Assembly (NCBI GenBank): GCA_964600985.1
Contig: CAZRJR010000003.1
Span: 2,583 to 66,582, forward strand
Source of the DNA: an uncultured Candidatus Saccharibacteria bacterium
GTDB taxonomy: Bacteria; Patescibacteriota; Saccharimonadia; CAILAD01; JADZBC01
Reading direction: 5' to 3'
DNA length: 64,000 nt
The translations under genes and the position numbers were made by a program. Under the pieces are notes generated by a model, which was not told where the DNA came from, did no database searches, and saw nothing but the letters and a program-made list of their open reading frames with translations. This document shows positions 4,443 to 58,453 of the stretch, in pieces (the first letter of the stretch is position 1; each line of letters begins with the position of its first letter).

Positions 4443-6956
4443 CTAGCGATTCACCACGGGAGTACCAGGCTTGGCTTGAGGCGTAGATGGCACCACGCTC
4501 AAACTCTGCGTTATTTCGGCAGCTACATCGGCCTTAGCGCGAGCGAAGTTTTGACGTGACAACTGCACCATTTGACCATATAGTGTAGGGTCGCTCTCGC
4601 CGATGGGCGGGAAGATTTCCTTAAGTGAAAAGGGCGGCGTAACTGCACCCCTACTAATCAAACGGGCAGCTGCATAGAGATTTGGCGTGTTAATAATGTC
4701 GTCCTTATCGAAAGCCGGCGCAAACTGCTTTGCCATAAACTCAGCGTCCTCTGGCCCTACCCTGAACCCAATCATATTACCGACGTTTCCAAACACCGCG
4801 TCGCGCACCGGTTCCTCAAGCTGTGAAATAAACTGATTCGCCATAATCATAGTCAGGCGGTACTTGCGGGCTTCAGACAAAATGGTAGCGATCGAATCGG
4901 TAGCGTAGTTCTGGAATTCATCGATATAGAGGCTAAAGTCCTGGCGTTGACCTTCGGGTGTGTCGGCCCGACTCATAGCTGCCATTTGGAATTTAATGAT
5001 AAAGATAATACCTAGCAATTTAGAGTTCTGATCACCCAGCAAACCCTTGGATAGGTTTACAAATAAGAGCTTTTTGCCATCCATAATATCCCGAAGGTTA
5101 AAGGAAGACTTTTTCTGACCAATGATGTTGCGCATAATCTCGTTGTTTGCAAAGTCGCCAAATTTAGAGGTGAAGTAGCCCAACATCTCGCTCTTAGAGT
5201 GTTCGCTGGTCTGAGCCATTTGCCCAGTCCAAAATTCTTGTACCACCGGATCACTTACATAGCGGAACTTTTGCTTTAAGAAATCATCGTTAGTAAAGAG
5301 CTTGGGTACCTCAATAAGTGTACCGCCAGCCGGGTCCGACATTACGGTGAGTGCGGCATTGCGAAACCAGTCTACAAACATTGGCCCAACTATTCCCTGG
5401 CCCTTAGGGTCGTAGAGTTTGTAGAACATGCTAATTGCTTCTTGGATTAAAAAGTCTTTTTGTTCTGGGTGAGCCGGATCAAATTCCATAATATTAAAGC
5501 CCAGGGGGTACTCGGTGTCACCAGGGTTAAAATAAATCACATCTTGCATGCGGTGTGGCGGCACCTTGGCCATAAGCTTCTCGGCAGTGTCACCATGTGG
5601 GTCGAGAAAACAAAGTCCCTTACCCATGTGCATGTCTTGCACTATGCAGTTCTCTAAGAAAACTGATTTACCCGTACCAGTTTGACCGATTATATATACA
5701 TGTCGACGACGATCGTCGTCGAGCAGGCGTACTACTGTTTCCTGGCCACGATACAAGTTGCTTCCCAATATAAGTCCTTCTGTAGGCATATCGGCCGGTG
5801 CTGGCACCTCACGCATACCCTTGCGAATCACTTGAGTAGACGATTCCATGCCTTCGCTCGGAAAGTGAAATATACTCGCCAGCTCAACGGAATTAAGGAC
5901 CGTTGAGGTTTGCGAAGCAGGGAAGAACCGAAAGATAAAGTCGGTTGTAAGCTTCTCTGGCGCTGCAGTAGGCTTGAATTTAAACTCATTAGAATTAGGC
6001 AGCGCTAACTGTGCAAATCCAGTTAGTATGTCCTGCACAATTGCCTTAGATCGATTCTGGTCAGTCGAGCTTGCAAGCACACGAATCATCACCTCGAATG
6101 CTGGCGCTGCGTACTTTTCCTCCACAAGCTGACTCATTTTTTGGTTAATTGCATCCGGTTGATTGTCTTGCTTGAGTGTACCCTCCTGAATTTTCTTGGA
6201 ATAACCCGGCTGCTTAATCGGCGCCATAGCAATGTCTTTAATGAGCTTTTTACCAGTATACTTTTCCTTGGCAATCTTTTCGGGATCAAGCAGGTCCTTG
6301 GCTTTCTTCTTAGCATTCTTGGCCCATTTAGCATGAGCTGGACGCACCAGGATCTGAATGCCGGCGCCTTCACCAGCCTGTAAGTGAGAAAGACTGCTTA
6401 GTATACCACTCAGTGGATCGGAGTCACGAGTTTTATAACTAGCAATCGGGAAGTAAGAATCATTCGCAAGGGCAAGCTCACCCCCCGACACACCTGCAAG
6501 CTTACTGGTTTCAGAAAAAATATTTGGGTCATCCACCTGCTCTATCTGAATTGTTGGATAGCCAGAAACCAAGGCCTTTTGTACAGTCGAAAGCAAGGTT
6601 ACGGGTACCGCCGCATAAAAGTAAATCATGGCGCCGTCGGCAATGATCTCGAAACTTAAGTAGCGATTACCATATATATGCGATTTATCAGCAGTGATGC
6701 CCGACAAGAGATTAAAGACTCCCTCGGCCTTTGATATGTTCTCCTTGAACAACTCCCGGGTATCGCGATTGCCTGCTTCACTCGCTTCGGCAGGCGGCAG
6801 TTTAATCTGTAGTGGCACAAGCTTAAGGCTGCGTTCTATGTCTTTGTTGCGCCGGGCTAGATTGCGGTACAGAATAAACAGCACCAAGCCTAGGGCAGAA
6901 AAAAAGGCCAGCCCCAAGGCCGTGCTGAGTAAAATAAAGGCTTGATTAGATTCCAA
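4443..6956 (-). CDS. membrane-anchored FtsK/HerA-superfamily P-loop ATPase (VirB4/VirD4/TraG/DUF87-like, T4SS-type)
   Basis: 837 aa. N-terminal TM helix. Walker A YIIGQTGTGKSVF followed by FLDPHGD (D-x-hGEY-like motif of HerA/VirB4). Walker B LYIDEFQNY then SEARKYRLTMIMANQ. No other T4SS components visible nearby. Confidence 0.5.
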   Translation of the reverse strand: MESNQAFILLSTALGLAFFSALGLVLFILYRNLARRNKDIERSLKLVPLQIKLPPAEASEAGNRDTRELFKENISKAEGVFNLLSGITADKSHIYGNRYLSFEIIADGAMIYFYAAVPVTLLSTVQKALVSGYPTIQIEQVDDPNIFSETSKLAGVSGGELALANDSYFPIASYKTRDSDPLSGILSSLSHLQAGEGAGIQILVRPAHAKWAKNAKKKAKDLLDPEKIAKEKYTGKKLIKDIAMAPIKQPGYSKKIQEGTLKQDNQPDAINQKMSQLVEEKYAAPAFEVMIRVLASSTDQNRSKAIVQDILTGFAQLALPNSNEFKFKPTAAPEKLTTDFIFRFFPASQTSTVLNSVELASIFHFPSEGMESSTQVIRKGMREVPAPADMPTEGLILGSNLYRGQETVVRLLDDDRRRHVYIIGQTGTGKSVFLENCIVQDMHMGKGLCFLDPHGDTAEKLMAKVPPHRMQDVIYFNPGDTEYPLGFNIMEFDPAHPEQKDFLIQEAISMFYKLYDPKGQGIVGPMFVDWFRNAALTVMSDPAGGTLIEVPKLFTNDDFLKQKFRYVSDPVVQEFWTGQMAQTSEHSKSEMLGYFTSKFGDFANNEIMRNIIGQKKSSFNLRDIMDGKKLLFVNLSKGLLGDQNSKLLGIIFIIKFQMAAMSRADTPEGQRQDFSLYIDEFQNYATDSIATILSEARKYRLTMIMANQFISQLEEPVRDAVFGNVGNMIGFRVGPEDAEFMAKQFAPAFDKDDIINTPNLYAAARLISRGAVTPPFSLKEIFPPIGESDPTLYGQMVQLSRQNFARAKADVAAEITQSLSVVPSTPQAKPGTPVVNR

Positions 6957-6977: not shown

Positions 6978-7415
6978 CTACTGCGGGTCACTCCTCTTAA
7001 TGTCTAGGTTAAAGCGCTGCTTTAGGTATAATGCGCTCAGTTCCTCATGTGCCTCTTCTTCGGCATGCGGATCCTGCGCGGTAGTGTGAATGATGGCATC
7101 AGCCCGGTCTACCCATTCCTTTTCGAGCTTCTTACCTCCTGCTGCCGGCGGTACTGTAGCTACTGGCTGCGGCTGCGTGGCGGCTTGCGGCGTGGCAGCT
7201 ACCGGTTGGGTAGACTGCTGGGATACGGCTGGCGCCTGGGTTGGTGCACCAGATGGCTGCACAGGCGCTTGCTCCGCCGCCGGAGCTACAGCGAGCTCTG
7301 AACTACGTAGTTGATCTGCAGTTTGTCCACCAACCGACTGTTCGGGGCGCTGGACTTGTGGTCGCGAATCTGGGCTTAGCGGATAGATAGGGTTAGGGTT
7401 ATGAGTAGGCTGCAT
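6978..7415 (-). CDS. hypothetical protein, Pro/Gln/Ala-rich N-terminus with conserved-looking C-terminal 50 aa
   Basis: 145-aa ORF between the ATPase and L,D-transpeptidase genes on the same strand. Low-complexity PQAT repeats. Coding status uncertain. Confidence 0.3.
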   Translation of the reverse strand: MQPTHNPNPIYPLSPDSRPQVQRPEQSVGGQTADQLRSSELAVAPAAEQAPVQPSGAPTQAPAVSQQSTQPVAATPQAATQPQPVATVPPAAGGKKLEKEWVDRADAIIHTTAQDPHAEEEAHEELSALYLKQRFNLDIKRSDPQ

Positions 7416-7503
7416 AGATTGACCTTTTGCCCTATTATAGCAATAAAACTATGCTCCGACCATAAGGACTATACAATCGAGTACAAATGATTCCGCTGAG
7501 TTT

Positions 7504-8988
7504 TTAGGTATGAACCCAAACCGGTGTGCCGATATCAGCCCAGTTATATATAAACGCTGCTGTTGCGAGTGGTAAATTCACACAACCATGGCTGCCATTG
7601 TAGTAATAGTCCGGCCCACCGTAGCTCGACCGCCAGCGCCACGCATCGTGCAAGCCAAACCCGCCATAGAACGGCATCCAGTAGTCCACGAGTACATCAT
7701 AGTTATACTGCGGGCCATACTGGTAACCAATTAAGTGTGTGTTGCGAGCCTTGGCGTAAATACTAAACAGCCCGGTAGCGGTAGGGAAGCCCATACCAGT
7801 AGCTCCGCTCGTAATTGGTGATTCGTAGATTACTTGGTCGTCCTGATATACCCACAGGTGTTGAGAAGTAAGATTGACTTCGATATAACGCGCCACACCG
7901 TCGAGCGTGGTAATGCGATTGTATTCAGTTTTGAATGCAACAGGAGCAGTTGTAAGTGTAAAGCTATTCGGAGTTTGTTTTTGTACAGCAGCTAGTAGAC
8001 TGGTTACTGCACTATCCTGATTGATGGCCAGGCCGTCCTCGCCCTCCTGGTCGGTCGTGCTCACTCCGTTTTTGATAGTGACTTTTTTATTCTTTGGCGC
8101 TATGTTGAGCTCGTTTGCGATTGTCTGCACATAGCCTCGCACCTTGGCTTCATCCACCTGGACCACCAGTGTGCTCTCCCCGGTAGCACTTTTTTGAGCT
8201 GGGAACGTGAGCCAACTAGCAATGTCGACAGAACTGGGTTTAAACGTCTTCCCTTGGTACTCCAGCACCACATTGGTCTGGGTCATGAGCTTAGCCTGGT
8301 CAATCACTGGCTGTGTAGCGGGTAATTGAATATCTGCTTTTACCCTGGTAGGCGTAAGCTCTACCGATTTGTCTTGACCCTCTGCCAGCACCTGCTGGAG
8401 TGTATGACCAAGCTCGGCTTGATCAATCGACACGCCATCTTGGTCAGGGACCGCCGCGATCACGCCGTCTGCCACCTGTACTCGAGCATTCACCGGTGGA
8501 CGGCCCACGTCAGAGAGAACCCGAGATACAAACTTACCAAGCGTAGCTGTATTAATACTATATGCGTAGCCAGTTCTGCCATTCTTTAGAGAACTCACAA
8601 TACCAACAATTGGCCACGGGGTAGTGCGACCAATGCGATAAGCGGCGTCCACAGTTGTGTTAATGTCACTCGTTGCCCCGAGCTGCTCGCTTTTCATAAC
8701 ATAAGTTTTATCAGCCAGCTTGAGAGTTAAAGTATGTTGATTGTCTTTGGCTGCCAGCAGTTTAATCGCTTGTGCGCGGGTCTTGAGCCCAACATCCTGA
8801 TTGGCGATTACCACACCAGGGTAGATCACGCCGGTTAGGGGAGCAGCCAAGATTGCATTTACAACCACCACGCCGAGTATGGGGGCCGCCAGTGCCAAAC
8901 CAAAGATTCGGAAGAGCTTTTTGCCACGCAAACTCTTTGCCCCCTTAGCCGCACTCCCAGAGTTAGTCTGTGGTGTATTCCGCCTCAT
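7504..8988 (-). CDS. L,D-transpeptidase (YkuD) domain protein with N-terminal TM anchor
   Basis: 494 aa. N-terminal TM helix (LFRIFGLALAAPILGVVVV). C-terminal YkuD-like motif NGSHGCVNLP with catalytic His/Cys. Confidence 0.55.
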   Translation of the reverse strand: MRRNTPQTNSGSAAKGAKSLRGKKLFRIFGLALAAPILGVVVVNAILAAPLTGVIYPGVVIANQDVGLKTRAQAIKLLAAKDNQHTLTLKLADKTYVMKSEQLGATSDINTTVDAAYRIGRTTPWPIVGIVSSLKNGRTGYAYSINTATLGKFVSRVLSDVGRPPVNARVQVADGVIAAVPDQDGVSIDQAELGHTLQQVLAEGQDKSVELTPTRVKADIQLPATQPVIDQAKLMTQTNVVLEYQGKTFKPSSVDIASWLTFPAQKSATGESTLVVQVDEAKVRGYVQTIANELNIAPKNKKVTIKNGVSTTDQEGEDGLAINQDSAVTSLLAAVQKQTPNSFTLTTAPVAFKTEYNRITTLDGVARYIEVNLTSQHLWVYQDDQVIYESPITSGATGMGFPTATGLFSIYAKARNTHLIGYQYGPQYNYDVLVDYWMPFYGGFGLHDAWRWRSSYGGPDYYYNGSHGCVNLPLATAAFIYNWADIGTPVWVHT

Positions 8989-9028
8989 TATTTCTTCGTT
9001 CTATTATAATAGGCCTCGCTACTTCTTG

Positions 9029-11842
9029 CTAGCGAATTATAACCTTTCCAAATGGCGCATGAGCCATAATTGCCTGTTCGATCGAGCTTAGTTTATTCTG
9101 GATTTCTGTAGTAGTTGGGTTGGGCCCCAGATCGAAACTTATACGGACTGTTAGGTTCTTAACCTTATCACGCTGCATTACGTCGTCTTGGTACAGACCG
9201 AGATATGCCACCTTCTGAACGCTATCCTGGTTAGTCACAAACTTCTCCAAATCACTCCAGGCTACGCTAGTATTACAAAGCATCGATATATCTCTGGAGA
9301 TAATCTGGTAATCAGGTAGATCAACCACCCGCATAGTAGCGGCCTGCTCTAACAGCGGACTTAGTAATACTTCACCATAGCTAACTTCGCTTTGTACGTC
9401 AGCTCGACTCACTACAGCCTTGCTCAGTTGGCCATATAGACCTACCTCGTCACCTTGCAAAGTAATTTTCCCACATCGACCGGGTGAGTAAACCGAGTCT
9501 TTGGCTACACTAAACTCCATATTTCCACCCGTAAAGCAATTAAGGTTATCAAGGGCTCCCTTGAGCCTGAGCAAGCTGTCTTTGCCAACCGTGGTAACGG
9601 CCAACTTCCAATCTTCAATCGGCAACTCACCGTCTTGCGTTGGCCTGTAGGTTCGGGATATCTCAAACATAGCAAACTGCTTGGCGTAGCCTTGGTTGTT
9701 CCGCACCACATCCAAATGGCTTGGTAGAATTGAGCTCCGTAGATACTGTTGTTCTTGGCTAAGCGGATTTGCAACTTCCATGAGTTCGGCTACGTTATAT
9801 CCAAGCCGCTCAATAGCGCGCGCACTAATGAATGAGTACGTGACAACTTCTTGAAGGCCAGTTGCTGCAAGGGCTCGTTTGAGCTCTAAAATATCGCCTA
9901 AAAGCCGATGTGGGCGCGTATTGGTAGGGGGTAGCGTAGGAAGTTCGGCCGGAATAGCATCGTATCCAATGATCTTAACGATCTCCTCGACCATATCCTC
10001 CTCGAGTCGCACATCGGTCCGCCACCACGGTGCCGTTACAGCCAAGATGTGATTAAAGTTTTCTACATAGCGCCTAGCGCCCAAGTACGTTGGCTCATTT
10101 GTAAAATCCGTTAACGGGACCTCGATCACGCCTTGCTGCTGGCGCGGCACCCACTCATCGCCTTTACGTTCATACTGGATTGCTGTAACTACCGTGTTAT
10201 TGCCTACATAAATTCCGTTATGCCCCACATACTCTGGTTCGTCGAGTGTATGCTTGTGCTTCTTGCCATCGGCATCAGTAGTGTAGTAGTGGTCGATCGG
10301 CGAGTTCTTCATAAGCCCCGTGTAGAACAACACGTCACCAGGTCTTAAGTCGCCAACTTCCACAGGCCAGCCATGGTGATATTGTCCGAGTGCCACATGG
10401 CCTACATGTACACCAATGCGCGAATAAATACGATCTACCAGATAAGAACAATCAAAGCCAGATTCACCGTGCTGTTTAAAGTTCGCGCCCCAAATATATG
10501 GTTTACCAAGATGCTTACGAGCTTCTTTTGTAATACTAAAATGCTCAACTTCGAAACCAAGCCGCTTAAGCCCACTAACCACTTGTTTTTCATCCAGCGC
10601 TACCCCTAGTATTTTCTCGGCCTTACGCAACCGTAAACCAATTTGCTGAACCCATGGCCAGCCATAAAGCTGATCTGTAGGGGAGTCAACTACTTTACCA
10701 TCGGCAACTTCTTGGAGCAGTACAACGAGTCGTTCGGCCGCAAAAGCAGGCAAGGGGAGGGGGAGTGAGCGCTCGAATCGTGCCGACGCCTCACTACGCA
10801 AGCCATGTCTAATTGCTGCCTTGCGAACTCGAGTTCTGTCAAAGTTCGCGATCTCAAGCAGTATTTCAGTCGTATTGGTGTCGACTTCGGTACGCGCGCC
10901 ACCCATCACGCCTGCTATACCAATAGCACCCTGGTCGTCTGCAATTACCAAGTCTTCCTCACTCAATGTGCGCTCTGCGCCATCCAGGGTGGTAAGTTTC
11001 TCAAGAGGGGAGGCGAAGCGTACTGCCAAATCACCGTGCAATTTAGTCGCATCATAAGCATGGGAGGGCTGTCCGGTTTCGAGCATAACAAAGTTAGTTA
11101 TATCTACAACGGGACTTATACTACGGATCCCGTTACCCTCTAAGTTATCCACAAGCCATTGCGGACTTTTCACGGCATTATTCACAGACATTTTCACAAC
11201 GATGAACCGCCTACATTCCCCCTTTTCCTTGACATCTACACTTTCTATGTCACTATATTGTATTTCGGCGGCAACAGGTAAAACTAGTTCGTTACCTTCG
11301 TCTCGGGCTGCCACTTCCCTAGCCAAGCCGATTAAACTCAAGTAATCCCACCTGTTTGCCGGTGTCTTTATATCCAGGCAATCACCTTTTTGCCATATGT
11401 CGCACAATGACTTTCCTAGGGGAGTTTCATCTGGCAAGAGCATGATACCGCTATGGTCGTCCGACACCCCCAGCTCCTTGGCTGAGCACAACATACCGTG
11501 CGACTCCACACCACGAAGCTTAGCCGCTTCAATGGTTAACCCATCCGGCAAGACACTGCCGACTTGCGCCAAGACCACCACTTGTTTTTCCGCCAAATTT
11601 GGTGCGCCACAAACTACCTCAACTGTGCCGCTGCCGGTATTAACAATAGCTATACGCAAACGATCAGCATCGGGGTGTGGCCGAACTTCATCTACCCGCG
11701 CAGTAATAATCTTCTCATCCCACGAGCTAGATGGCAGCACCTCCTCGACCTCAACTTCGGTTTTTAGTAACAACTCCACCATGCGTTCGGTTGAAAGCTG
11801 GCTCTTGAGATAGCGATTAATGCTGTCGACTGATATTTTCAT
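9029..11842 (-). CDS. pheT: phenylalanine--tRNA ligase beta subunit carrying an inserted NlpC/P60-like domain
   Basis: 937 aa. N-terminal tRNA-binding OB domain, B3/4, B5 (LGVALDEKQVVSGLKRLGFEVE), then ~160-aa insert GKPYIWGANFKQHGESGFDCSYLVDRIY...GDVLFYTG...HNGIYVGNNTVVTA (NlpC/P60 signature). PheT sequence resumes at VTAPWWRTDVRLEEDMVEEIVKIIGYDAIP. A C-terminal FDX-ACB-like region is present. Start overlaps the pheS stop. Confidence 0.95.
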   Translation of the reverse strand: MKISVDSINRYLKSQLSTERMVELLLKTEVEVEEVLPSSSWDEKIITARVDEVRPHPDADRLRIAIVNTGSGTVEVVCGAPNLAEKQVVVLAQVGSVLPDGLTIEAAKLRGVESHGMLCSAKELGVSDDHSGIMLLPDETPLGKSLCDIWQKGDCLDIKTPANRWDYLSLIGLAREVAARDEGNELVLPVAAEIQYSDIESVDVKEKGECRRFIVVKMSVNNAVKSPQWLVDNLEGNGIRSISPVVDITNFVMLETGQPSHAYDATKLHGDLAVRFASPLEKLTTLDGAERTLSEEDLVIADDQGAIGIAGVMGGARTEVDTNTTEILLEIANFDRTRVRKAAIRHGLRSEASARFERSLPLPLPAFAAERLVVLLQEVADGKVVDSPTDQLYGWPWVQQIGLRLRKAEKILGVALDEKQVVSGLKRLGFEVEHFSITKEARKHLGKPYIWGANFKQHGESGFDCSYLVDRIYSRIGVHVGHVALGQYHHGWPVEVGDLRPGDVLFYTGLMKNSPIDHYYTTDADGKKHKHTLDEPEYVGHNGIYVGNNTVVTAIQYERKGDEWVPRQQQGVIEVPLTDFTNEPTYLGARRYVENFNHILAVTAPWWRTDVRLEEDMVEEIVKIIGYDAIPAELPTLPPTNTRPHRLLGDILELKRALAATGLQEVVTYSFISARAIERLGYNVAELMEVANPLSQEQQYLRSSILPSHLDVVRNNQGYAKQFAMFEISRTYRPTQDGELPIEDWKLAVTTVGKDSLLRLKGALDNLNCFTGGNMEFSVAKDSVYSPGRCGKITLQGDEVGLYGQLSKAVVSRADVQSEVSYGEVLLSPLLEQAATMRVVDLPDYQIISRDISMLCNTSVAWSDLEKFVTNQDSVQKVAYLGLYQDDVMQRDKVKNLTVRISFDLGPNPTTTEIQNKLSSIEQAIMAHAPFGKVIIR

Positions 11843-12816
11843 TAAAATTGCTCCAAATAATCTAGCTTAGGACGCCAGAAGTTCCGAAGATCAGATATAC
11901 CGTATTTAACCATAGCGATGCGTTCGGGGCCCACGCCAAAGGCAAGACCACTGTACTTTTCTGCGTCGATTCCCGCATTTCTTAGAACACGAGGGTGCAC
12001 CATGCCGCCACCGAGTAGCTCTAGCCATTCGCCTTTGTATGTCACATCTATCTCGATTGAAGGCTCGGTGTACGGGAAATAACTCGGACGCAAGCGTATC
12101 TCAGTCTCCTCCCCAAGCAAGTCTTTCATAACGGCCAAGAGCACGCCTTTGAGGTGAGCAACCGACACACCCTCTCCCACCACTAAACCTTCTACCTGAG
12201 TAAATGACCAGAGGTGAGTTCTGTCCTCGTCTTCGTTACGGAACACCTTGCCTGGTACGATTATCTTAAACGGCGGCTTGTTATTCTTCATAAACCGCAC
12301 TTGCATGCCCGAGGTATGCGTACGAGGCAAAATGCGATTAGACCCAGCGGCGTCTTTTATATAGAACGTGTCTTGCATATCTCGCGCTGGGTGATGTGGT
12401 GGCATATTGAGCGCCTCGAAGTTGTGCCAATCATCCTCTATTTCGTTACTATCAACTATAGCAAAACCAAGTCGAGTAAATGATGCATACAACTCCGACA
12501 TAACCAAGCTTACTGGATGCATGTGCCCTGCCGGCTGCCCTAAGCCAGGCTGCGTAACATCGAGGGGTGGCAGTACATCAAGCTCTTCGAGTAATTCAGC
12601 TTTGCGCCTTGTGAACACCTCCTCTAGTTCTTTTTTAACTACATTGAGTTCAGCACCCTTTTGCTTTCTTAAGCTTTCGTCAAGCGCGCCCAGTGAAGTT
12701 AACTGAGCTTGCAATTCGCTTTTTTTGCCCAGGAACTTTGCCTTTGCTAACTGCAGTTCGTTTTCGTTTTTAACAGCTTTAGCAGCAATGATTGCGGCGT
12801 GTACTAGGTCGTTCAT
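11842..12816 (-). CDS. pheS: phenylalanine--tRNA ligase alpha subunit
   Basis: 324 aa with class II aaRS motifs (FRPSYFPYTEPS, GLAFGVGPERIAM). Directly upstream of pheT. Confidence 0.95.
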   Translation of the reverse strand: MNDLVHAAIIAAKAVKNENELQLAKAKFLGKKSELQAQLTSLGALDESLRKQKGAELNVVKKELEEVFTRRKAELLEELDVLPPLDVTQPGLGQPAGHMHPVSLVMSELYASFTRLGFAIVDSNEIEDDWHNFEALNMPPHHPARDMQDTFYIKDAAGSNRILPRTHTSGMQVRFMKNNKPPFKIIVPGKVFRNEDEDRTHLWSFTQVEGLVVGEGVSVAHLKGVLLAVMKDLLGEETEIRLRPSYFPYTEPSIEIDVTYKGEWLELLGGGMVHPRVLRNAGIDAEKYSGLAFGVGPERIAMVKYGISDLRNFWRPKLDYLEQF

Positions 12817-13217
12817 GCTCGCCTCTTATCTGTGGAGTATAAATACAATTCAATAATCAACACGGCTCCAGTAATAAGCAGAGCATCGCTCGCACCTAGT
12901 GTACCTAGGCTACTCATACCTAAAAGTATTACTATTGCTCCTGCCGGCACGATTGATATACGAAATGCCCGCATAGCCTGCCCCTGATTGTGCATGCCAA
13001 CGCGCCTATATATACGTGCCAAAAACATGAGCATAAACACACTTGTAAGTGCTGTTAGAGCCAGAATAAACCAAATGGTTACTCCCGCTGGCCCGATCTG
13101 GCTTGGAGTAGAAAACGACATAAGTGAAAACAGAATAGTGAAAGACAAGATACAAGCAACCACAAGACCAACACTAAATATTCCCTTTTTAAGCTTATGT
13201 ATACCTGACATATTCAT
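12813..13217 (-). CDS. small integral membrane protein (4 predicted TM helices), first gene of the pheST transcription unit
   Basis: 134 aa, highly hydrophobic. Stop overlaps the pheS start by 4 nt. Confidence 0.4.
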   Translation of the reverse strand: MNMSGIHKLKKGIFSVGLVVACILSFTILFSLMSFSTPSQIGPAGVTIWFILALTALTSVFMLMFLARIYRRVGMHNQGQAMRAFRISIVPAGAIVILLGMSSLGTLGASDALLITGAVLIIELYLYSTDKRRA

Positions 13218-14041: not shown

Positions 14042-15022
14042 TTACAATAAGCCTAGTTTTTGCTTTACTTCTGAGAGTTTTTGTCCGGCAATGATACTTG
14101 CTTTCGCAGCCCCCTCATCTAAAACTTTGTATAAGTACGTTTCGTCAGCCATAAGCGCATGAAAAGTGCGCTGCATATCACCCAGTTCCTGTACGAGGAG
14201 GTCAGCGAGGTCTTGTTTAAACTCACCGTAACCCTTAAATTTATACTTATCCTCCACTTCTGCGGGAGTCTGGCCACTAAAGCCCGTATATATATGAATG
14301 AGGTTAGTTATAGCACCTCCCTGTGGGCTTACTTTAACTTCATTCTCGGTATCTGTTACAGCGCGTTTAAGCTTTTGACGAATAGTAGCTTCGTCGTCTA
14401 GCAGCATGATGTTGCCATTCTGATTCTCGTCGCTCTTACTCATTTTACTCCCAGGATCTTGTAAGCTCATGATTCTGCCCCCCACTGCCGGCAATATGGC
14501 TTCAGGGACTACAAATGTGGGGCTATATATTTTATTAAACCGCTCTACAATGTCGCGTGTTAGCTCTACATGCTGCTTCTGATCCTCACCTACCGGCACC
14601 TTCTGTGCATCATAAAGAATAATGTCGGCAGCCATAAGCACAGGATAGGTAAAGAGGGCGACTAGTTGACCCTCCGGGCCACGCTTTGCGCTCTTGTCCT
14701 TATACGAAGTCATACGACTTAGTTCCCCTATAGTCACGAAGTTATTAAGAATCCAGCAAAGCTCGGAATGAGCCGATACATGTGACTGTGCAAATACCAC
14801 GGACTTTTTAGGGTCAACCCCAGCGGCCAAGAACCATGCGACATTTGCCAGAGTGTCTTGACGCAGTGTTACTGGATCAGGGCGGACATTGAGTGAATGC
14901 AAATTTGGGATAAAATAGAAGGCCTCACCTTGATCCTGCATGGCCGCGAATGGCTTCACCATACCTAAGTAGTTGCCAATGTGCAGTTTGCCGGTAGCCT
15001 GAATACCCGAAAGAATACGCAT
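14042..15022 (-). CDS. trpS: tryptophan--tRNA ligase
   Basis: 326 aa. HIGN class I motif (GKLHIGNYLG) and KMSKS. Confidence 0.95.
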   Translation of the reverse strand: MRILSGIQATGKLHIGNYLGMVKPFAAMQDQGEAFYFIPNLHSLNVRPDPVTLRQDTLANVAWFLAAGVDPKKSVVFAQSHVSAHSELCWILNNFVTIGELSRMTSYKDKSAKRGPEGQLVALFTYPVLMAADIILYDAQKVPVGEDQKQHVELTRDIVERFNKIYSPTFVVPEAILPAVGGRIMSLQDPGSKMSKSDENQNGNIMLLDDEATIRQKLKRAVTDTENEVKVSPQGGAITNLIHIYTGFSGQTPAEVEDKYKFKGYGEFKQDLADLLVQELGDMQRTFHALMADETYLYKVLDEGAAKASIIAGQKLSEVKQKLGLL

Positions 15023-20215: not shown

Positions 20216-22276
20216 ATGACTACCCAATTCTACCAGCGCGTCGCCAAACTCGTACCCTACCCGTCCAAGCACTCTACTGTGCCGGCCCTGGCCTTTGCCT
20301 ATCATTTTGAGCCCCCTATAGAACAAAAAGCTCAAGCCGGCAGTCTATACGTGGTTATTGAGGTGATGGCCAAAGAGTCGCTTGCCAGCCAGGTAGTTGA
20401 CCTTGTCATTAAGACCATGGGGGAGGAATACTACAATAAGAAGTTTCAAGACGAACCCAATATACGCTTCGAAAAGTCGATCGCCGCACTCAATACCCAA
20501 CTAGCTAAGCTTTATAGCTCGCATCACGGCAAGCACATTAACAACCTCAGCGCAGTTATCGCAGTAATTGACCAAGACCAACTCTACCTGTCACAAACCG
20601 GCAAAGCACACGCTCGACTCTACCGCTCTGGCAAAGCAACTGAGTTAAGTGAAGGTCTCAGTACTGTCTCAAACCCCCAGAAGACCTTTCATGGTATCGC
20701 TGAGGGATCACTAAAGCAAAAGGACAAGCTTGTTTTCACTTCGCCGGCCATATTGTTTGAATTCCAAGCCAAGCAGCTTGACCAGATGATTGTGGACAAC
20801 TCACCAGCTTCGGCAGTCCAAAAGATGAGCCACCAACTCGAAGGCCAAGATAGTAGTGCGCGCTGCGCTGCGCTCATTGTCGAACTCACTGACCTTAACC
20901 AGGCCGCCGACGAGCCACTCGATGCACACCCAGACACTGCCATGGTCGGCAAGCCTCAAACAAAACTCGATGAAGTGAAGGCCGCAACCACGCCAATCGC
21001 AGCCAAAGCGTCCCAAAAAGCGCTTACGGCCGTCACAAAGAGCCGTACCTGGTGGCACACCCAAGCATTACCTGTTGCCAAGCACCACACCAAGTCGATT
21101 TGGAACCGTCTATGGGTAAAATATATCAACCCAAACCCACGTAAAGCTCTTGCGCTCGTTGGCGGCATGGTTATCCTCCTCGGAGTAAGTATATATGCGT
21201 TCTCCGTTAACCACGTTAATTACCGCGGCCTTGTCGTGGACTATAAGGAAGTAATTGCCCTCACTGAAACTGCCGAGGCCAAACAAAACCTAGGAGAAGC
21301 ACAGGCCAGCCAACAAACCCTTGCCTCAGCTAAAGCCAAACTCGAGAACATTACCAAGACATATACACCCAAGCAGGTCAGTAAAGCGATCTCGACAGAC
21401 AAAGACCTAGCCACACAACAGAACATCGCTCCAGCCAAGCTCAGAACGCGTCAAATAACCTTGGACGACAAACTAAATAACATCACCAGACTAACATTTA
21501 ATAATGTTGTGGACTTTACATCTAAAAAGAACTTTCAAGCCAGTTTCTTAGTTCGGCTCGACGACAGGCTCTACTGTGTCGACACATCTTCAGGCAGCCT
21601 CTACCAGGTAGATACCAGCAAGAATAGCGCCACTGTGGTGGCGCAAAACTCTGCTCTTAAGTCTGCTGTAGCAGCCACTCCATCATCGCTTGGTGACAGC
21701 ATATACCTACTCACCTCGATTCCAAATGTCTTACAATACAGTCCAGGCAAGACCCTCTTTACGGTAAAACTCAGTGGTGGTGACTGGACCGCTGGAAATG
21801 CTATTGCTAGCTACATTGGCAACCTCTACATTCTCTCGCCACAAAACAGCCAAATTTATCGCCATAGTCGCACCTCAATTGGCTTCAGCGCTAGCTCAAG
21901 CTATATTAAGCGTACCAATACTGTCAGCGTATCAAAAGGTCAAGGCCTAGCTATTAATGGCACTATATTGGTGGCGAATGGCTCTAGCAAAATCACCACC
22001 TTCAGTAATGGTCTTGGCGCCGAAGAAAGTGTAGCCAAGCTCCCCAGTTCTGTTCAAGGGTTTAAACGGATTCAACTCCAAAGTGATCAAGCACTGCTCA
22101 CTCTTGATACCGACGGGCTCCACCTCTATAGCATTACAAGCTCTGCCGACAGCTATGCATTTAGACAGCAATACGTTAGCCCAAGTAATACACGCGTAGA
22201 AGACTTCGTGGTCACGAGCGACGGGACCCTCTATGTGCTCTCTGGCAAAAAGATTCTCGTCTCCAAGCTGCCTTAA
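20216..22276 (+). CDS. hypothetical signalling-type membrane protein: N-terminal PP2C/SpoIIE-like domain, TM helix, C-terminal beta-propeller-like repeats
   Basis: 686 aa. LSAVIAVIDQDQLYLSQTGKAHARLYRSGK resembles a PP2C core. TM at ~aa 305-330. C-terminal repeated YxVDTSSG / IYLLTS / LYILSP / LYVLSG blades. Confidence 0.4.
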   Translation: MTTQFYQRVAKLVPYPSKHSTVPALAFAYHFEPPIEQKAQAGSLYVVIEVMAKESLASQVVDLVIKTMGEEYYNKKFQDEPNIRFEKSIAALNTQLAKLYSSHHGKHINNLSAVIAVIDQDQLYLSQTGKAHARLYRSGKATELSEGLSTVSNPQKTFHGIAEGSLKQKDKLVFTSPAILFEFQAKQLDQMIVDNSPASAVQKMSHQLEGQDSSARCAALIVELTDLNQAADEPLDAHPDTAMVGKPQTKLDEVKAATTPIAAKASQKALTAVTKSRTWWHTQALPVAKHHTKSIWNRLWVKYINPNPRKALALVGGMVILLGVSIYAFSVNHVNYRGLVVDYKEVIALTETAEAKQNLGEAQASQQTLASAKAKLENITKTYTPKQVSKAISTDKDLATQQNIAPAKLRTRQITLDDKLNNITRLTFNNVVDFTSKKNFQASFLVRLDDRLYCVDTSSGSLYQVDTSKNSATVVAQNSALKSAVAATPSSLGDSIYLLTSIPNVLQYSPGKTLFTVKLSGGDWTAGNAIASYIGNLYILSPQNSQIYRHSRTSIGFSASSSYIKRTNTVSVSKGQGLAINGTILVANGSSKITTFSNGLGAEESVAKLPSSVQGFKRIQLQSDQALLTLDTDGLHLYSITSSADSYAFRQQYVSPSNTRVEDFVVTSDGTLYVLSGKKILVSKLP

Positions 22277-22299: not shown

Positions 22300-24033
22300 C
22301 TACATCTTAGCCGGGACTTCTAGCCCCAAGCACTCAAGCGCATGAGCCATGGTGGCTTCAACTGCCCGACTAAGTTGCAAGCGAGCCAGTTTATCGCCGT
22401 CAGTCGCCGACAGAATTGGTAGGTTATTATATATATTGTTGTAATGTTGAGCGAGCGTATAGGTAAAGTTTGCAATTTGATTAGGCTTATTCTCGGCTAC
22501 AGCTCGCTCGCAGATCTCCTGGTAGCGCGATAGCAAAAGTAAGGTCTCACGCTCAACAGGGTTTGACCAATCATAGCCTAATTTAGCACTCGCCGTTTTA
22601 CTCACCTGTTCTGCTTTGGCAAGCAAGGAGCGTAATCGTACCGCACTATAAAGCAAGTATGGAGCACTATTACCCTCAAAATTCAGCATAGTCGACCAAT
22701 CAAACACGATGTCGGTCAGCCTGTTCTGTGACAATACGTTGTATTTTATACAGCTAATTGCTAATACATCAGCGGCAACTTGCTGCTCGGTTACATTGAG
22801 GCCATGTGACTTTTCTTGCATCAGAGCCAAAGCTCTACTCTTAGCCTCGGCTATAAGGTCTTTTAGGAGCAAAATATTACCTTTTCGCGTACTCATACTG
22901 CCATCTGCAAAGCGCATACGACCAAAGTTAACTTGCGTAAGCTGGGCGTCGGTCAATTTCAGCTTCCGTGCTACAGAGTAGAGCTGTTTTTGAGCAAAGC
23001 TTTGCGCTTCATCAACCACTACCATCATGATATCTGGGTGCCAAGCCTGCTCCCAGTAGGCAATGCGCGCCAGATCTCGGGTTAAATACAGCGTAGCGCC
23101 GTCACTCTTGCGTAATATTGCCGGGGGTGCCTCCGCATCCTCGGCCGGACACACCAAGGCCCCATGACTTTCTACAAAAATGCCCTGTTCTACCCCCTGG
23201 TCCAGTAACGGCTGCATTTTATCTTCATAAAAGCTCTCGCCATGCATGTAATCAAATTCCACACCAAGTGCATCATAAATAGGCTGAATCTCGGCTTTAC
23301 TCCATGCTACAATCTTGTGCCATAAGGCACGGTTCTCTTCGTCACCCTGCTCGAGCTTCAGGTATTCTTCGCGCGCTGCCTCATCGAGCTCCACATCGCC
23401 ATCGGCTGCAATATGAAACTGCACGTAGAGCTTTTGAAGCTCCGTGATAGGGTTGGCCTCGATTGCCGCTGTGTCCCCCCACTGCTTGACCGCCCAAATA
23501 AGCTTACCAAACTGAGTTCCCAGATCACCTATAAAGTTATCGGCAGTCACTTTATAGCCAGCCTTACGCATAGTGCGCTTAATTGAATCACCAATTATCG
23601 TTGAGAGCAGGTGGTGTACCCCCATCGGTTTACCGATGTTAGGGTGTGAGTAATCCATAGCGACCGTTTTACCACTACCGAATTGCCTAATGGGCCCTTC
23701 GGCAGATGTAGCACGCTCAGCCAAACGGCCCACCAAGTTGCTTAAGGCATTCGAACTAAGTCGGAAATTTATAAACCCAGCCCCCGCCACACTCGCCCAA
23801 TCAATCAGTGTGTTACTCGGCAAATGCGCCACAATCGCTTCTGCTACCGTGCGCGGATTAAGCTTGTTAGCGGCAGCGACCTTCATAGCCACGCTCGAAG
23901 CTATGTCGCCAAACGCTTGGTCTGGGTAGCTTATACTCTCGCTAAGCGTCCCTGGCGGTAGTTCTTGGCCCGGATAAGCCGATTGGTACGCTTGATCCAG
24001 TAGGCCTATTAGATCTGTAGCTACGTCGTTCAT
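22300..24033 (-). CDS. argS: arginine--tRNA ligase
   Basis: 577 aa. HIGH-like (SHPNIGKPMGVHHL), DALR anticodon-binding C-terminus ending ...LGLEVPAKM. Confidence 0.95.
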   Translation of the reverse strand: MNDVATDLIGLLDQAYQSAYPGQELPPGTLSESISYPDQAFGDIASSVAMKVAAANKLNPRTVAEAIVAHLPSNTLIDWASVAGAGFINFRLSSNALSNLVGRLAERATSAEGPIRQFGSGKTVAMDYSHPNIGKPMGVHHLLSTIIGDSIKRTMRKAGYKVTADNFIGDLGTQFGKLIWAVKQWGDTAAIEANPITELQKLYVQFHIAADGDVELDEAAREEYLKLEQGDEENRALWHKIVAWSKAEIQPIYDALGVEFDYMHGESFYEDKMQPLLDQGVEQGIFVESHGALVCPAEDAEAPPAILRKSDGATLYLTRDLARIAYWEQAWHPDIMMVVVDEAQSFAQKQLYSVARKLKLTDAQLTQVNFGRMRFADGSMSTRKGNILLLKDLIAEAKSRALALMQEKSHGLNVTEQQVAADVLAISCIKYNVLSQNRLTDIVFDWSTMLNFEGNSAPYLLYSAVRLRSLLAKAEQVSKTASAKLGYDWSNPVERETLLLLSRYQEICERAVAENKPNQIANFTYTLAQHYNNIYNNLPILSATDGDKLARLQLSRAVEATMAHALECLGLEVPAKM

Positions 24034-43204: not shown

Positions 43205-43606
43205 ATAGCCTCATAAGCCAGTTATAAGCCGAATTCTGTAACCCGCTAAAGCGAACTAGCGATCATCTATCTTCCTGCATTACTGCAGGCGTCCATACCA
43301 AGGTATGGATCGTGCGACAAACCCCAAAAAGAGCGAGTAACTCTGCCTAGTGGCGGGGCCCATAGTCTTGCAGCGAATGGGGTTTACCTCCAATCATAGT
43401 CACCTAAGATTGCTGTGTGCTCTTACCACACTCTTTTCACCCTTACCCCTCACCTTTTATGTCGCCACAAAAGGTGAGGGGCGGTATTGTTTCTGTGGCA
43501 CTTTCCCTAAGGTTGCCCTCGGTTGCCGTTAGCAACCATCCTACTCTATGCTGTTCGGACTTTCCTCTCCCGCTAGGGAGCGATCGCTCGCTGACTTATG
43601 AGGATT
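43205..43606 (-). ncRNA. rnpB: RNase P RNA, bacterial type A
   Basis: Minus strand: P1 CCUCAUAAGUCAG / CUGGCUUAUGAGG. P4 5' strand GGGAGAGGAAAGUCCGAACAGC. GGUAAGGUGAAAAGAGUGUGGUAAGAGCACAC (P10.1-P12 region). GGUAAACCCCAU. P4 3' strand ACAGAAUUCGGCUUAUAACUGG. No ORF. Confidence 0.85.
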
Positions 43607-45299: not shown

Positions 45300-45590
45300 T
45301 ATTTAGAGGCCGTATACTGCGAAAAAGCCTGTGGGCTAGGCACACTTGCCCCCTCCGCAGATACCTGCGCTAGAGCGGCGCTATACTGAGCTTTTAGGCC
45401 ATCCACTCGGCGCGTTAGCTCCCCACTCATAGCGTGCAGGTGGTAGCCATAGGCTGATACCATAGCTATTAGAAAAAACGTTTTTACTCTCACGGGCACG
45501 ATCCACTTTTATCGACGCTATTATAGCCTTAGTGAGGCTGAATTGCGAGCATAACCTACTTTGGCTTAGATCCTCGTGAGCTATCACCAA
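45300..45590 (-). pseudogene. frameshifted remnant of a histidine-kinase DHp domain downstream of the giant surface-protein gene
   Basis: The -1 frame continues the H-box helix of the upstream ORF as ...VIAHEDLSQSRLCSQF (like DHp helix 2, LL-x-LSRLE). Only ~70 codons remain before the HIT gene, and no HATPase_c is possible. Confidence 0.3.
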
Positions 45591-48500
45591 GCACTTCTAT
45601 GCCATTCTGGATGATGGTAATCGGGGTATTAAGGTAGTGCGAGGCCAAGGCAATGAAGTTGTCCTGCTGGGCACGAATAGACTTACGCTTAGCTATAAAC
45701 TCACGGTTGAGCTTGTCTTTGCGAATTTCGTTATTAGACTGGTAGTACAGAGATAAGGCGAATATAAGCAGGAGCAGGAACAAGAGGTATGGGAAGCCAA
45801 TAGCAGCCTGGCGCGGTACAAAGTGAGCAACTGCTAGTATGCCTCGGTCAAACCAGTTTAGACTTACCTTGTTTGGTGAGGTTGGGGTGTACTGGGTAGT
45901 GATTATACGTGGCGACTTGCCAGATGTTGGCTGGATCGTTGTAGCCGTAGGTGGCTCTACAGTTGGTGGTGTAGTTGGACAAGTGTTGGTAGTAGCACAC
46001 GGTACCGACGGACAAGTGTTGGTTACCGTACAATCTGCCGGCGATGCTGGAACTATGAAGGCTATGCCAGCCTGTGGTGAAGTTATTGCACCTACCACTC
46101 GAGAGCCATACGCGTACGATCCAGTAGCTAGCGGCATGAGGGGTGACGTGGGTTCCAGGAAAGCACCAGCCTGCACGTTCCAGACTAAAGCACTTGAACT
46201 ATCACTAAAACTCAATAATGGAATATATACTCTCTCAGGGTTTGAGCTTATACCCAGACCAGTAGGCAAGCCATTAATTCCGTCATGCAACTCAACTTGG
46301 TTAGTGCCTAGATTCACCACTGCAAACTTCCCTATTGAAGGCATTACAGCAATATAGGCATAGCTAGCTGAAGCATCAAGGGTAAACGGATAAAAGATAT
46401 CTTCGTACGGGTCAGGGAAGGCCATGACGCTTATTGAATTCAACTCCAAGCCACTAGAAGCATCTAATACCTTTAAGACTAGTTCATGGCCCTCCACATC
46501 CTTCGCTAGGTAATACAGCTTGCCAGCTCTATAGGTGGTAGTACCGACCATTGTGTTGCCAGAAACGTTAATTGTCCTTACTGCACCAGTAGCAAGCGTA
46601 TATTCCAACACAGTATTCACCTCGGCTCCGAAACTCGTATAGAACTTAGTGGCGTCTTCATTAAGTGCACCATTAGTAAGCCCGTAAACATTCGATCCTG
46701 GCAAGATGGCTTCCGATCCCTCTAGGGAGAAGGTGCTTAGGTTTAACTTTCTCAGCATTGAGCCAGCCGAATTGCTCTGTTCTGTTAGCACTGCGAAGTT
46801 ATCGTCAGGTGTTATACTCAAGCCGAGGGCAAATGAATTCGTTTGAGGAGGAACGGTAAGCGTACGCTGGCTCATAGTATTTAAGTCAAGTTCGCGCACA
46901 ACAGCCTGTACTCCATTGGCGTTATAGCCAAATATATACAACTTCGTTCCGCTATTGTTCAAGGTTGCCCCAAACGCAACAAACGGAGGTTGACTAGCGC
47001 TGTTAATCCTTATGGTTCTGAGGACAGAGGCACTGCTGTTGTCGATTACTTGGACTGCTGTATTACCACTACTATCGAGCCAAGGAATAAACGCAACGTC
47101 ACTACCGGGAACCCATCGAGCCACTAGGTTATGATTACCGACAGCGACCCCACTTACCTCGTAGGTCCAGGTACCCTGCGCATTAGCAGTAGTTGTTCCG
47201 ACCTGAGTACCGTCTACAAAGATCGAGATTACTTTGTTGGCCGGCCCCGTGCCAGTCACGGTACTAGCGCCACCACCAAAGCTCGCACCATTAATTGGCG
47301 AGGTAATAGTCACAAACGGACTGTTGTCGTACACTACCGCCTGACCCACAACGAGTGTAAATGCTTGAGTGTCACTACTAAACCCATCGTCGGCTTGTAC
47401 AGTAAAGTTATACGTTCCTGCCTGAGTTGGTGTGCCCTGCAAATAGCCTTGCAAGCTTAGGCTCATGCCGCTTGGCAGGCTTCCACTCACCACAGTAAAG
47501 ACCGGCTGAGAGGCGGCGCCTTCGTATTCGATAGTTTTACTATATTGTAGTCCTACGCGACCAAAAGGCAGATTCGCAGTAGTGATGTTTAGTTGTGGTG
47601 CTGTCACTACTATGGTGTATTCTTGGCTCGTTGTGCCTCCAGGGTTTGCGCCACGAGTATCCTGAGCCTCTACCATAAAGGTATACGTGCCTGCAGAAGT
47701 TGGGGTGCCATACAAGATCCCGGTGCTGCCGGCGCCAACTAGTGTAAGTCCGTCGGGCAAGGCTCCAGTCACTACACTGAATGCCACATCTCCCAAATGA
47801 TTAGCGGTATATATATACTCTTGGTAGCTGGCGCCAACCTGAGTATCTGGTAAAACTTCTGTGGTTATGCTTAACGGTGCTGTTTCGTTCACTAAGATAG
47901 AGAGCGAAGCGGTGTCAGAAGTGTGCCCATCCGTCGCCGTCACATCAAAGCCATAAGTACCAATTGCTTCCGGTATACCAGTTATGTAGCCCGTATTGGT
48001 ATCCAGGCTCAGTCCGGGCGGCAAGCTACCAGAACTAATGCTATACGTAACCGTACCCGAGTTTTCGTCTACCGCAATGTTATCCTGGTACGACACACCA
48101 ACTGCGCCATCATCTAGGTTCGTGGTTGAAATATGTACCGGCACACAGTCATCCGTTGTAAACGTTGCATCACTACTAACTTGGAATCCGCCTCTATCAA
48201 TCACAAATACCCTGTAGTGGTACAACGTGCTACAGGCTAAGCCGCTCACCGCTTTGTCGATGCCTGCCACGCCGTCTACCGGACTCATGGCGCTAGAATC
48301 TACCGCCGAGCTACCATAGCTAGTAGTCAGGCCATACTGGAAGCCACGAGACGTAATGCCCTGTGGGTAATCAGTTGTGCCATGCAGAGTTGCTCCGGTA
48401 CGAGTAATGTTGTCAGCCGGTAATGCAGTGAGGGTACGCAGGCCCGTGCAGGGTTCGGTCGTAAACGTACTGTCGCTACTATAGTCTGTACTATCAGCAT

Positions 48501-58376: not shown

Positions 58377-58453
58377 TGGTGGGCCCTAGAGGATTCGAAC
58401 CACTGACCTCTTCCACGTCAAGGAAGCGCTCTAGCCAACTGAGCTAAGGGCCC
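58377..58453 (-). tRNA. tRNA-Val (anticodon GAC), CCA encoded
   Basis: GGGCCCU-UA-GCUC-AGUUGGCUAGA-GCGC-U-UCCUU-GACGUGG... anticodon loop UUGACGU, T-arm GGUUCGAAUCC, acceptor closes perfectly. Confidence 0.85.

Follow-up and report, generated by a model that had tools for sequence, protein, structure and literature searches.

The DNA analysed here, the whole of which is referred to as the window, is a stretch of 64,000 nucleotides from an uncultured Candidatus Saccharibacteria bacterium (GenBank assembly GCA_964600985.1, contig CAZRJR010000003.1, positions 2,583 to 66,582). It carries the genes pheS and pheT for the two subunits of phenylalanyl-tRNA synthetase (PheRS), and the beta subunit, PheT, holds a complete domain of the NlpC/P60 superfamily nested within its B5 domain. 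The features of this locus are given below from high to low coordinates; they were assigned from open reading frames (ORFs), profile matches, alignments and AlphaFold2 (AF2) models.

11842..12816, minus strand: pheS, PheRS alpha subunit, 324 amino acids (aa); ORF, its stop codon overlapping the pheT start by 1 nucleotide (nt)
9029..11842, minus strand: pheT, PheRS beta subunit, 937 aa, host of the insert; ORF, profile matches, AF2
10703..11215, minus strand: B3/4 editing domain, aa 210-380; PF03483, E=8e-58
10541..10660, minus strand: N-terminal half of B5, aa 395-434, ending in strand 431-434; split Pfam B5 match, DSSP
10049..10540, minus strand: inserted NlpC/P60 (C40) papain-like domain with its linkers, aa 435-598; PF00877, AF2, Foldseek
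10067-10534, minus strand: fold core of the insert, aa 437-592; AF2 model
10448..10450, minus strand: codon of the catalytic Cys465, FDCS motif; translation, alignment
10253..10303, minus strand: clade-specific beta-hairpin extension 1, aa 514-530, SPIDHYYTTDADGKKHK; gapped in about half of the homologues, AF2 strands
10220..10222, minus strand: codon of the catalytic His541, VGHNGIY motif; translation, alignment
10184..10186, minus strand: codon of Thr553, third triad position; aligns to the His of '...IHA' in 7cfl
10145..10177, minus strand: clade-specific extension 2, aa 556-566, QYERKGDEWVP; gapped in 35/120 homologues, within long predicted strands
9962..10048, minus strand: C-terminal half of B5, aa 599-627, ILAVTAPWWRTDVRLEEDMVEEIVKIIGY; Pfam B5 positions 34-67
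7504..8988, minus strand: PG_binding_4 + YkuD L,D-transpeptidase, membrane-anchored, 494 aa, given as context only; Pfam

The 937-residue protein quoted in an earlier note on this DNA, made from the bare sequence, is the exact product of the pheT ORF. Against the curated equivalog TIGR00472 (pheT_bact, NCBIfam) it scores 580.8 bits (cut-off 402.65), the match coming in two stretches because the insert interrupts PheT, and the Pfam domains PF01588 (tRNA_bind), PF03483 (B3_4), PF03484 (B5) and PF17759 (tRNA_synthFbeta) lie above their cut-offs. PF03147 (FDX-ACB) reaches 23.7 bits and stays under its cut-off of 31.1; the region is annotated in many close homologues and forms an alpha/beta domain in the AF2 model of the query. 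The full-length model, with a mean predicted local distance difference test (pLDDT) of 88.7 and a predicted template modelling score (pTM) of 0.61, matches every bacterial PheRS beta structure with E about 1e-67. Like bacterial beta subunits of the TIGR00472 type, the protein comprises the B1/B2 tRNA_bind region, B3/4, B5, a catalytic-like module (CLM) and a B8-like C-terminus, keeps the editing residues and the PWWRxD...EE motif, and is encoded in an overlapping pheS-pheT operon; pheS precedes pheT in the majority of related loci too. It differs from the solved bacterial enzymes, such as those of T. thermophilus (1PYS, 2IY5), E. coli (3PCO) and P. aeruginosa (4P71), in its weak FDX-ACB match and in a B5 domain broken by about 160 aa where they have a hairpin turn of 8-12 residues.

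Alignment to solved PheT chains places R240, N250, F251, H261, Y263, G314, E330, S350 and A352 of the B3/4 domain opposite R244, N254, Y255, H265, F267, G318, E334, T354 and A356 of E. coli PheRS, T354 and A356 being positions that we take to belong to the editing set. Among 57 relatives N250, H261 and G314 are invariant, and 90% or more keep E330. PMC12449066 is the source for the majority of the E. coli editing positions. The canonical editing residues are thus intact in the query, which speaks for a working PheRS as the host and for the insert as an addition to a normal enzyme rather than a substitute for lost editing; a replacement of the editing site is ruled out on these grounds. Together with the alpha subunit the protein, in which all motifs are kept, would be expected to aminoacylate tRNA(Phe). 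In the window's ORFs of 150 aa or more, some of which were scanned, there was no sign of a second pheT.

When the protein was compared with the solved chains by phmmer, query residues 429/433 fell opposite 433/438 in both P. aeruginosa PheT and 7n8y_B, the Salmonella PheRS G318W chain, and query residues 602/603 opposite 446/447 of the same two chains. About 169 query residues therefore occupy a span that takes 8-12 residues in canonical PheT, in agreement with the roughly 160 extra residues counted in the earlier note. The note had placed them after B5, whereas they lie within it, at the tip of a beta-hairpin, and its statement that the domain is not a terminal fusion holds all the same, the domain being nested within B5. 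Pfam matches B5 in two stretches, of which the second (aa 594-627) covers profile positions 34-67 of 67, and the insertion point falls between positions 33 and 34. In the full-length AF2 model, as assigned by DSSP, B5 proceeds through strand 399-404, helices 405-412 and 418-427 and strand 431-434, is then left for the domain at 437-591, and resumes with strand 599-604 and helix 614-625, such that the insert is flanked by strands 431-434 and 599-604. From the split match and this layout of strands it follows that the domain is an excursion from the tip of the B5 hairpin. The strand behind the insert runs into the motif PWWRTD...EED..EE; P605, W606, W607, R608, D610, D616, E619 and E620 are invariant in the 57 relatives, and in the solved PheT chains the counterpart of the C-terminal half of B5 is the P(S/T)WRxD...EE..R.YGY motif. 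The acidic residues of this motif presumably bind the Mg2+ ion shared with the alpha subunit, in line with UniProt/HAMAP annotation; if so, the tether of the inserted domain emerges close to the alpha/beta interface.

Profile, fold and the Cys and His residues place the insert in the NlpC/P60 superfamily. PF00877 matches aa 446-515 in the context of the whole protein with E=1.8e-9 (38 bits, cut-off 23) and the excised insert with E=2.1e-11 (44.2 bits), so that the identification passes a hidden Markov model search either way; positions 1-64 or 1-67 of the profile, its first two thirds, are aligned, the limit being set by the clade-specific hairpins. The NCBIfam models for RipC, p60 and RipA/B and the sequences of NlpC/P60 hydrolases in the PDB match the insert as well. 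An AF2 model of the segment built with 25 homologues has a pLDDT of 91.9 and a pTM of 0.87, and a Foldseek search of the PDB with it returned 60 matches at E<=0.001; the 50 that were listed are NlpC/P60 domains without exception (50/50), headed by Acd24020 (7cfl), LytE, MepS, CwlO and SagA, with target-normalised TM-scores up to 0.84. The complete papain-like NlpC/P60 domain that the earlier note had read from motifs is thereby borne out as a distinct, confidently predicted fold, both alone and as residues 437-591 of the full-length model. The note was likewise right that the insert is in frame and no intein, since Pfam shows no Hint or intein family at E<=0.1; the NlpC/P60 fold accounts for the segment in its entirety, and an intein was rejected.

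Translation and alignment bring C465 and H541 into register with the catalytic Cys and His of 7cfl and 8v3w, as the earlier note had supposed, and a predicted helix, 465-474, begins at Cys465. The Cys-His-His/Glu triad envisaged there does not hold for the query, in which the third position is occupied by Thr553 and not by a canonical polar partner (His, Asn, Gln or Glu), leaving a Cys-His dyad plus Thr. The insert resembles the secreted C40 D,L-endopeptidases, such as C. difficile Acd24020 (7CFL), B. subtilis LytE and CwlO or E. coli MepS, in its papain-like fold (Foldseek E about 1e-8) and in the order of its motifs, PYxWG-, FDCS, PGD..F and H.G.Y.G, with Cys and His in place. Unlike them, it is internal to a cytoplasmic protein and has neither a signal peptide nor a cell-wall-binding module, and it shows a loop of nine residues, instead of 5-7, before the Cys, two extra hairpins (aa 514-530 and 556-566), 'GH(T)A' in place of 'PR(T/S)' in the Saccharimonadia inserts, and, in the query, the third-position Thr. 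Resemblance in sequence and predicted fold is what would suggest hydrolysis of gamma-D-Glu-diamino-acid bonds by the insert.

The architecture extends far beyond this genome. All of the 120 best homologues, which belong to Saccharimonadia and go down to 42% identity, carry the insert at the same site; they are full-length proteins of 850-952 aa, except for one fragment of 627 aa, and nearly all are flagged with PF00877. A pattern scan of GTDB species representatives yielded 255 relatives; 80 loci were kept, 69 of them PheT of Saccharimonadia/Saccharibacteria metagenome-assembled genomes (MAGs). In a Paceibacterota MAG (locus L070) a PheT of 802 aa, without B2, has NlpC/P60 at the same place, and so do its closest relatives, with PF00877 in 120/120 of the best ones, the few of them that are named being Paceibacterota, Pacebacteria, Lloydbacteria and Parcubacteria. 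At this locus (L070:2266-5374) PheS has only 231 aa and is devoid of the long N-terminal extension, and the next gene downstream encodes a papain-like protein of the Peptidase_C39_2 family. A word-indexed search with the insert alone gave four matches, none of them a PheT; an exhaustive profile search over 1.84 billion representatives added PheT groups with lengths of 777-845 aa and 923-936 aa. In ten out of ten PheTs checked from the profile search, B5 is split at about profile position 33/34, and the same split B5 is present in a third PheT group (P0210, P0211, P0229, P0260). The insert is missing from the solved PheT structures of Proteobacteria, Firmicutes, Deinococcota and Actinobacteria. 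A misremembered spacing, considered in the earlier note, thus does not account for it: the insert is not common to all bacterial PheT, and it is found across the lineages of Patescibacteria. On this comparison of sequences, it is to be regarded as an ancient, lineage-wide feature of Patescibacteria PheT (Saccharimonadia, Paceibacterota/Parcubacteria and the third group) and not as a peculiarity of one genome.

The same in-frame architecture recurs in over 240 independent protein clusters, drawn from many assemblies, which excludes a mis-assembly or frameshift in practice; a gene fusion and a mis-assembly were both rejected, as the architecture recurs in the homologues and in the Paceibacterota-type set. 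The shared site (Pfam B5 33/34) and the nine-residue loop before the Cys, shared by the three groups, point to a single origin of the insert early in Patescibacteria. A neighbour-joining tree of NlpC/P60 domains has long branches and neither joins nor separates the three groups of PheT inserts. Locus L023 and the P0229 cluster comprise bacterial-type PheT with the insert which are labelled Nanoarchaeia or Aenigmarchaeota in the source records; they probably are mis-binned contigs of the candidate phyla radiation (CPR), and gene transfer is the less likely explanation. The NCBI names recorded for such proteins include 'C40 family peptidase' and 'phenylalanine--tRNA ligase beta subunit-related protein'.

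Conservation of the catalytic residues differs between the groups. Among 120 Saccharimonadia clusters the Cys is kept in 106, the His in 107 and both in 105, and every member of the query's clade keeps both; the third position is Gln in 35 clusters, Glu in 21, His in 21, Met in 17 and Thr in 10, with Thr confined to the query's clade (P0001-P0010). In the Paceibacterota-type PheT, Cys and His are present in 120/120 each and the third His in 116/120, together with the motifs P-R (119 and 118), D-Q (117 and 119) and G-D..F (120), again of 120; in the Saccharimonadia inserts the canonical 'PR(T/S)' is changed to 'GH(T)A'. About 14/120 Saccharimonadia clusters have lost Cys and/or His, their inserts being reduced to 104-127 aa with the frame and the skeleton (LKPGD, G.Y.G, GARRY..NFNH) retained. 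These decayed inserts look like pseudo-enzyme remnants, and since they are still in frame with their skeleton, selection seems to keep something there without catalysis. The Thr in the query's clade and the loss of Cys/His in about 12% of clusters imply that catalysis is dispensable in some lineages. The mean pairwise identity of the insert (0.51) is close to that of B1-B2 (0.52); B5 has 0.54-0.63, the CLM 0.37 and B8 0.31. Against the closest relatives, L001 and L002, the nonsynonymous divergence (dN) amounts to 0.15-0.20 for the insert and 0.25-0.32 for the rest of PheT, synonymous divergence (dS) being saturated and giving no ratio. These values indicate that the insert is under purifying selection. 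Its GC content, 0.46-0.53, is the same as that of the flanks.

The nearest profile matches outside PheT include small proteins without a signal peptide (P0122, P0255, P0258) and two fusions. They are set apart from other NlpC/P60 domains by the length of the loop before the Cys, taken as the number of positions that separate FDC from the 'G-A' of PYxxGA:

PheT inserts, all three groups: 9 residues in 38/40
Leaderless and fused proteins: 8 residues in 16/16
Other, mostly secreted NlpC/P60 domains: 3-7 residues in 111/112

The loop length, taken with the identical insertion site, supports both the single origin and a sister relation of the PheT insert to the leaderless clade. One of the fusions (P0233, a cluster of 18 members at 90% identity, on CPR-like contigs) joins NlpC/P60 to QueH; examples at L083:6001-7005 and L088:272-1243, on compact bacterial contigs, show an N-terminal leaderless NlpC/P60 domain followed by the epoxyqueuosine reductase QueH. 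The other (P0417) consists of a full-length Taw3/TYW3 with a C-terminal NlpC/P60 domain and was found on two independent contigs (L081:6001-6957 and L082:2773-3729), with Taw2, a LysA-like decarboxylase (under the lysA cut-off), GatB, AspRS and GatA as neighbours. Taw3/TYW3 is the N4-methyltransferase of wybutosine synthesis on tRNA(Phe). A metagenome scan seeded with the leaderless group further revealed a 161-aa leaderless NlpC/P60 gene that overlaps the start of a monomeric PheRS by 8 nt (L086), the latter having 376 aa, tRNA-synt_2d and FDX-ACB domains, a mitochondrial-type architecture and no beta subunit. This locus, L086:860-2468, belongs to the prokaryotic metagenome contig Ga0209542_10045247; a related contig of the same sample (L085) encodes an archaeal-type phosphoglucose/phosphomannose isomerase. 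At L092 a leaderless copy lies about 1.3 kb from pheS. Between this pheS, which is divergently oriented, and the NlpC/P60 gene there is an ORF of 240 aa (L092:967-1689) with a LAGLIDADG-like motif and no Pfam match, which may be a mobile insertion that parted two once-adjacent genes.

The domain is cytoplasmic by construction, well folded, strongly constrained and tethered to the B5 domain of an otherwise canonical PheRS. As to what it does there, we tentatively favour, at a level of confidence a little below even, an active cytoplasmic thiol hydrolase that is coupled to PheRS and tRNA, particularly tRNA(Phe), and splits an ester or amide linkage in a molecule handled by PheRS. Cys465 would serve as nucleophile and His541 as base, with Thr553 standing in for the usual third polar residue in the query's clade. 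The two-strand tether, which emerges a few residues ahead of the invariant PWWRxD...EE motif, would hold the domain in place, and its activity would be functionally coupled to PheRS or tRNA(Phe) instead of merely hitch-hiking in pheT. The scissile ester or amide bond may lie on a substrate that the synthetase either handles or meets, candidates being aminoacyl-tRNAs that are non-cognate, D- or N-blocked. In the lineages with a decayed active site, what is left of the domain would persist as a structural element of B5. The link to tRNA is favoured by the repeated, independent ties to PheRS (nested in PheT; overlapping operon partner), Taw3 and QueH, and it is this genomic context, i.e. the operon with the monomeric PheRS and the Taw3 and QueH fusions, that makes a role in the deacylation of aminoacyl-tRNA conceivable. 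A scan of the window's other ORFs found neither pth nor dtd, which in 64 kb is uninformative for the genome.

A further proposal, possible but to be viewed with some scepticism, is that the PheT insert, the gene next to the monomeric PheRS, the Taw3/TYW3 fusion and the QueH fusions make up a hitherto unrecognised family of hydrolases or acyl-transferases with a papain fold and a link to tRNA, in ultra-small symbiotic prokaryotes (Patescibacteria and DPANN-like archaea). Their activity could possibly be a thiol-based proofreading or deacylation on tRNA(Phe), directed at D-, non-protein or N-blocked aminoacyl esters; alternatively, an aminoacyl transfer via a thioester intermediate is possible. 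In both cases a synthetase would have acquired a novel chemical solution as part of its own structure. We know of no aminoacyl-tRNA deacylase family with a papain-like fold. Editing and trans-editing modules with other folds are represented by AlaX, YbaK/ProX and DTD, AlaX being the free-standing counterpart of the editing domain of AlaRS. In the same way, CtdA is a free-standing relative of the B3/4 editing domain of PheRS (PMC12449066). The insert shares with the pairs B3/4-CtdA and AlaRS-AlaX the arrangement of a hydrolytic domain inside or beside a synthetase plus free-standing paralogues; the likeness is one of evolutionary pattern, as its papain-like fold and thiol chemistry are different and the B3/4 domain is still present.

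A number of observations weigh against a tRNA-linked activity. The best matches in sequence and structure are peptidoglycan D,L-endopeptidases; the full motif set of the Paceibacterota inserts suits a gamma-D-Glu-peptide substrate at least as well as one linked to tRNA; the query's clade has Thr at the third triad position; and about 12% of the Saccharimonadia clusters are without Cys/His. The net charge of the insert, taken as a proxy for nucleic-acid binding, is inconsistent among the groups, the Paceibacterota inserts being acidic and not basic, and does not discriminate among the readings. In addition, a leaderless relative adjoins the gene of glutamate racemase in L090, the LysA-like decarboxylase adjoins the Taw3 fusion and the L,D-transpeptidase follows pheT in Saccharimonadia, while the contexts L087, L093, L096 and L165 say nothing on function.

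Several of these points find a natural place if the insert is a muropeptide amidase, i.e. a cytoplasmic gamma-D-glutamyl-diamino-acid endopeptidase of the YkfC type, the chemistry of which is unrelated to tRNA. YkfC of B. subtilis and B. cereus is a cytoplasmic NlpC/P60 gamma-D-Glu-L-diamino-acid endopeptidase of peptidoglycan-peptide recycling. Such an enzyme would cleave imported or recycled peptidoglycan peptides or precursors and thereby serve amino-acid salvage in auxotrophic symbionts, and it would hitch-hike in pheT only because a protein that is essential and constitutively expressed offers a safe harbour in a surface hairpin that tolerates insertions. The top matches in sequence and fold (Acd24020, LytE, CwlO, MepS, SagA, RipA/C) are those expected of it, the Paceibacterota inserts keep all canonical motifs including the Cys-His-His triad, and the neighbours include glutamate racemase (L090), the LysA-like diaminopimelate decarboxylase next to the Taw3 fusion and the PG_binding_4 + YkuD L,D-transpeptidase kept directly downstream of pheT in Saccharimonadia. 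The insert resembles YkfC in being intracellular, in the canonical triad of its Paceibacterota version and in being plausibly suited to small peptides; in contrast to YkfC, which stands alone, has SH3b domains and belongs to a peptide-catabolism operon, it is nested in an aminoacyl-tRNA synthetase, and its relatives are found by PheRS, Taw3 and QueH. An amidase of this kind leaves four ties to PheRS or tRNA unexplained, namely the insert in PheT, the operon shared with a monomeric PheRS and the fusions to Taw3 and to QueH; the change of 'PR(T/S)' to 'GH(T)A' and the variable third residue in Saccharimonadia suggest a shift away from the ancestral substrate, and the downstream L,D-transpeptidase acts outside the cytoplasm and may reflect simple synteny. 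All in all, we consider a hitch-hiking amidase unlikely, albeit a contender to be taken seriously.

Less probable still, and in our estimation improbable, is a mainly non-catalytic module, i.e. a scaffold, binding or regulatory element of PheRS, which might bind a ligand or peptide or stabilise B5 or the tetramer, catalysis being vestigial. It would accommodate the Thr of the query's clade, the Met at the third position in 17 other clusters and the roughly 14/120 clusters in which Cys and/or His are gone and the skeleton is still in frame. It is at odds with the invariance of Cys and His in 120/120 Paceibacterota-type proteins and their joint retention in 105/120 Saccharimonadia clusters, with the ability of papain-like enzymes to work with a Cys-His dyad, and with the slower evolution of the insert compared with the rest of PheT in the query's clade. 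An artefact or mobile element (mis-assembly, chimera, frameshifted fusion, intein or recent mobile insertion) has nothing but the prior that metagenome assemblies can be chimeric in its favour and is given practically no credence, as the same in-frame junctions occur in hundreds of independent assemblies of deeply divergent lineages, both halves of B5 are intact and confidently modelled, Hint/intein matches are lacking, the GC content equals that of the flanks and selection is purifying.

The earlier note knew of no description of such an architecture, and a literature search of 8 million full texts found none of NlpC/P60 in PheT; the text of the 2024 AARS Online paper does not mention NlpC or peptidase. 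In the databases the architecture is visible through automatic protein names only. Few groups of proteins are as thoroughly catalogued as the aminoacyl-tRNA synthetases. An intact cysteine-hydrolase domain has been kept in PheRS across major classes of Patescibacteria, a radiation that represents a large share of bacterial diversity. Retention in genomes this small implies an important function. Should the tRNA link hold, translational quality control would gain both a fold and a chemistry that are new to it; should the function be muropeptide salvage, it would show how auxotrophic epibionts feed on the host cell wall, and why this is tied to an essential enzyme. In either case, the insert can be used as a molecular synapomorphy and annotation marker.

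The remaining features of the window are the following:

43209-43599, minus strand: bacterial RNase P RNA, class A; 223.7 bits
29473-29861, minus strand: tmRNA; 89.1 bits
49891-49963 and 58380-58453, minus strand: two tRNA genes
4443-6956: 837-aa protein with only a weak match to a type IV secretion system coupling-protein (VirD4-like) domain
14042-15022: class Ib Trp/Tyr-type aminoacyl-tRNA synthetase, 326 aa; Pfam
20216-22276: 686-aa ORF, no Pfam match
22300-24033: ArgRS, 577 aa; Pfam
45556-49758: 1400-aa ORF

In neither the Trp/Tyr-type synthetase nor ArgRS, both encoded within 12 kb of pheST, does Pfam detect an extra domain. The L,D-transpeptidase gene lies downstream of pheT in most Saccharimonadia loci, and the gene order of the region 6978-13217 (a 134-aa membrane protein, pheS, pheT, the L,D-transpeptidase and a 145-aa protein) is kept in most of them. 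The 145-aa protein past the L,D-transpeptidase is rich in Pro, Gln and Ala, and its conservation is limited to the C-terminal ~50 residues.

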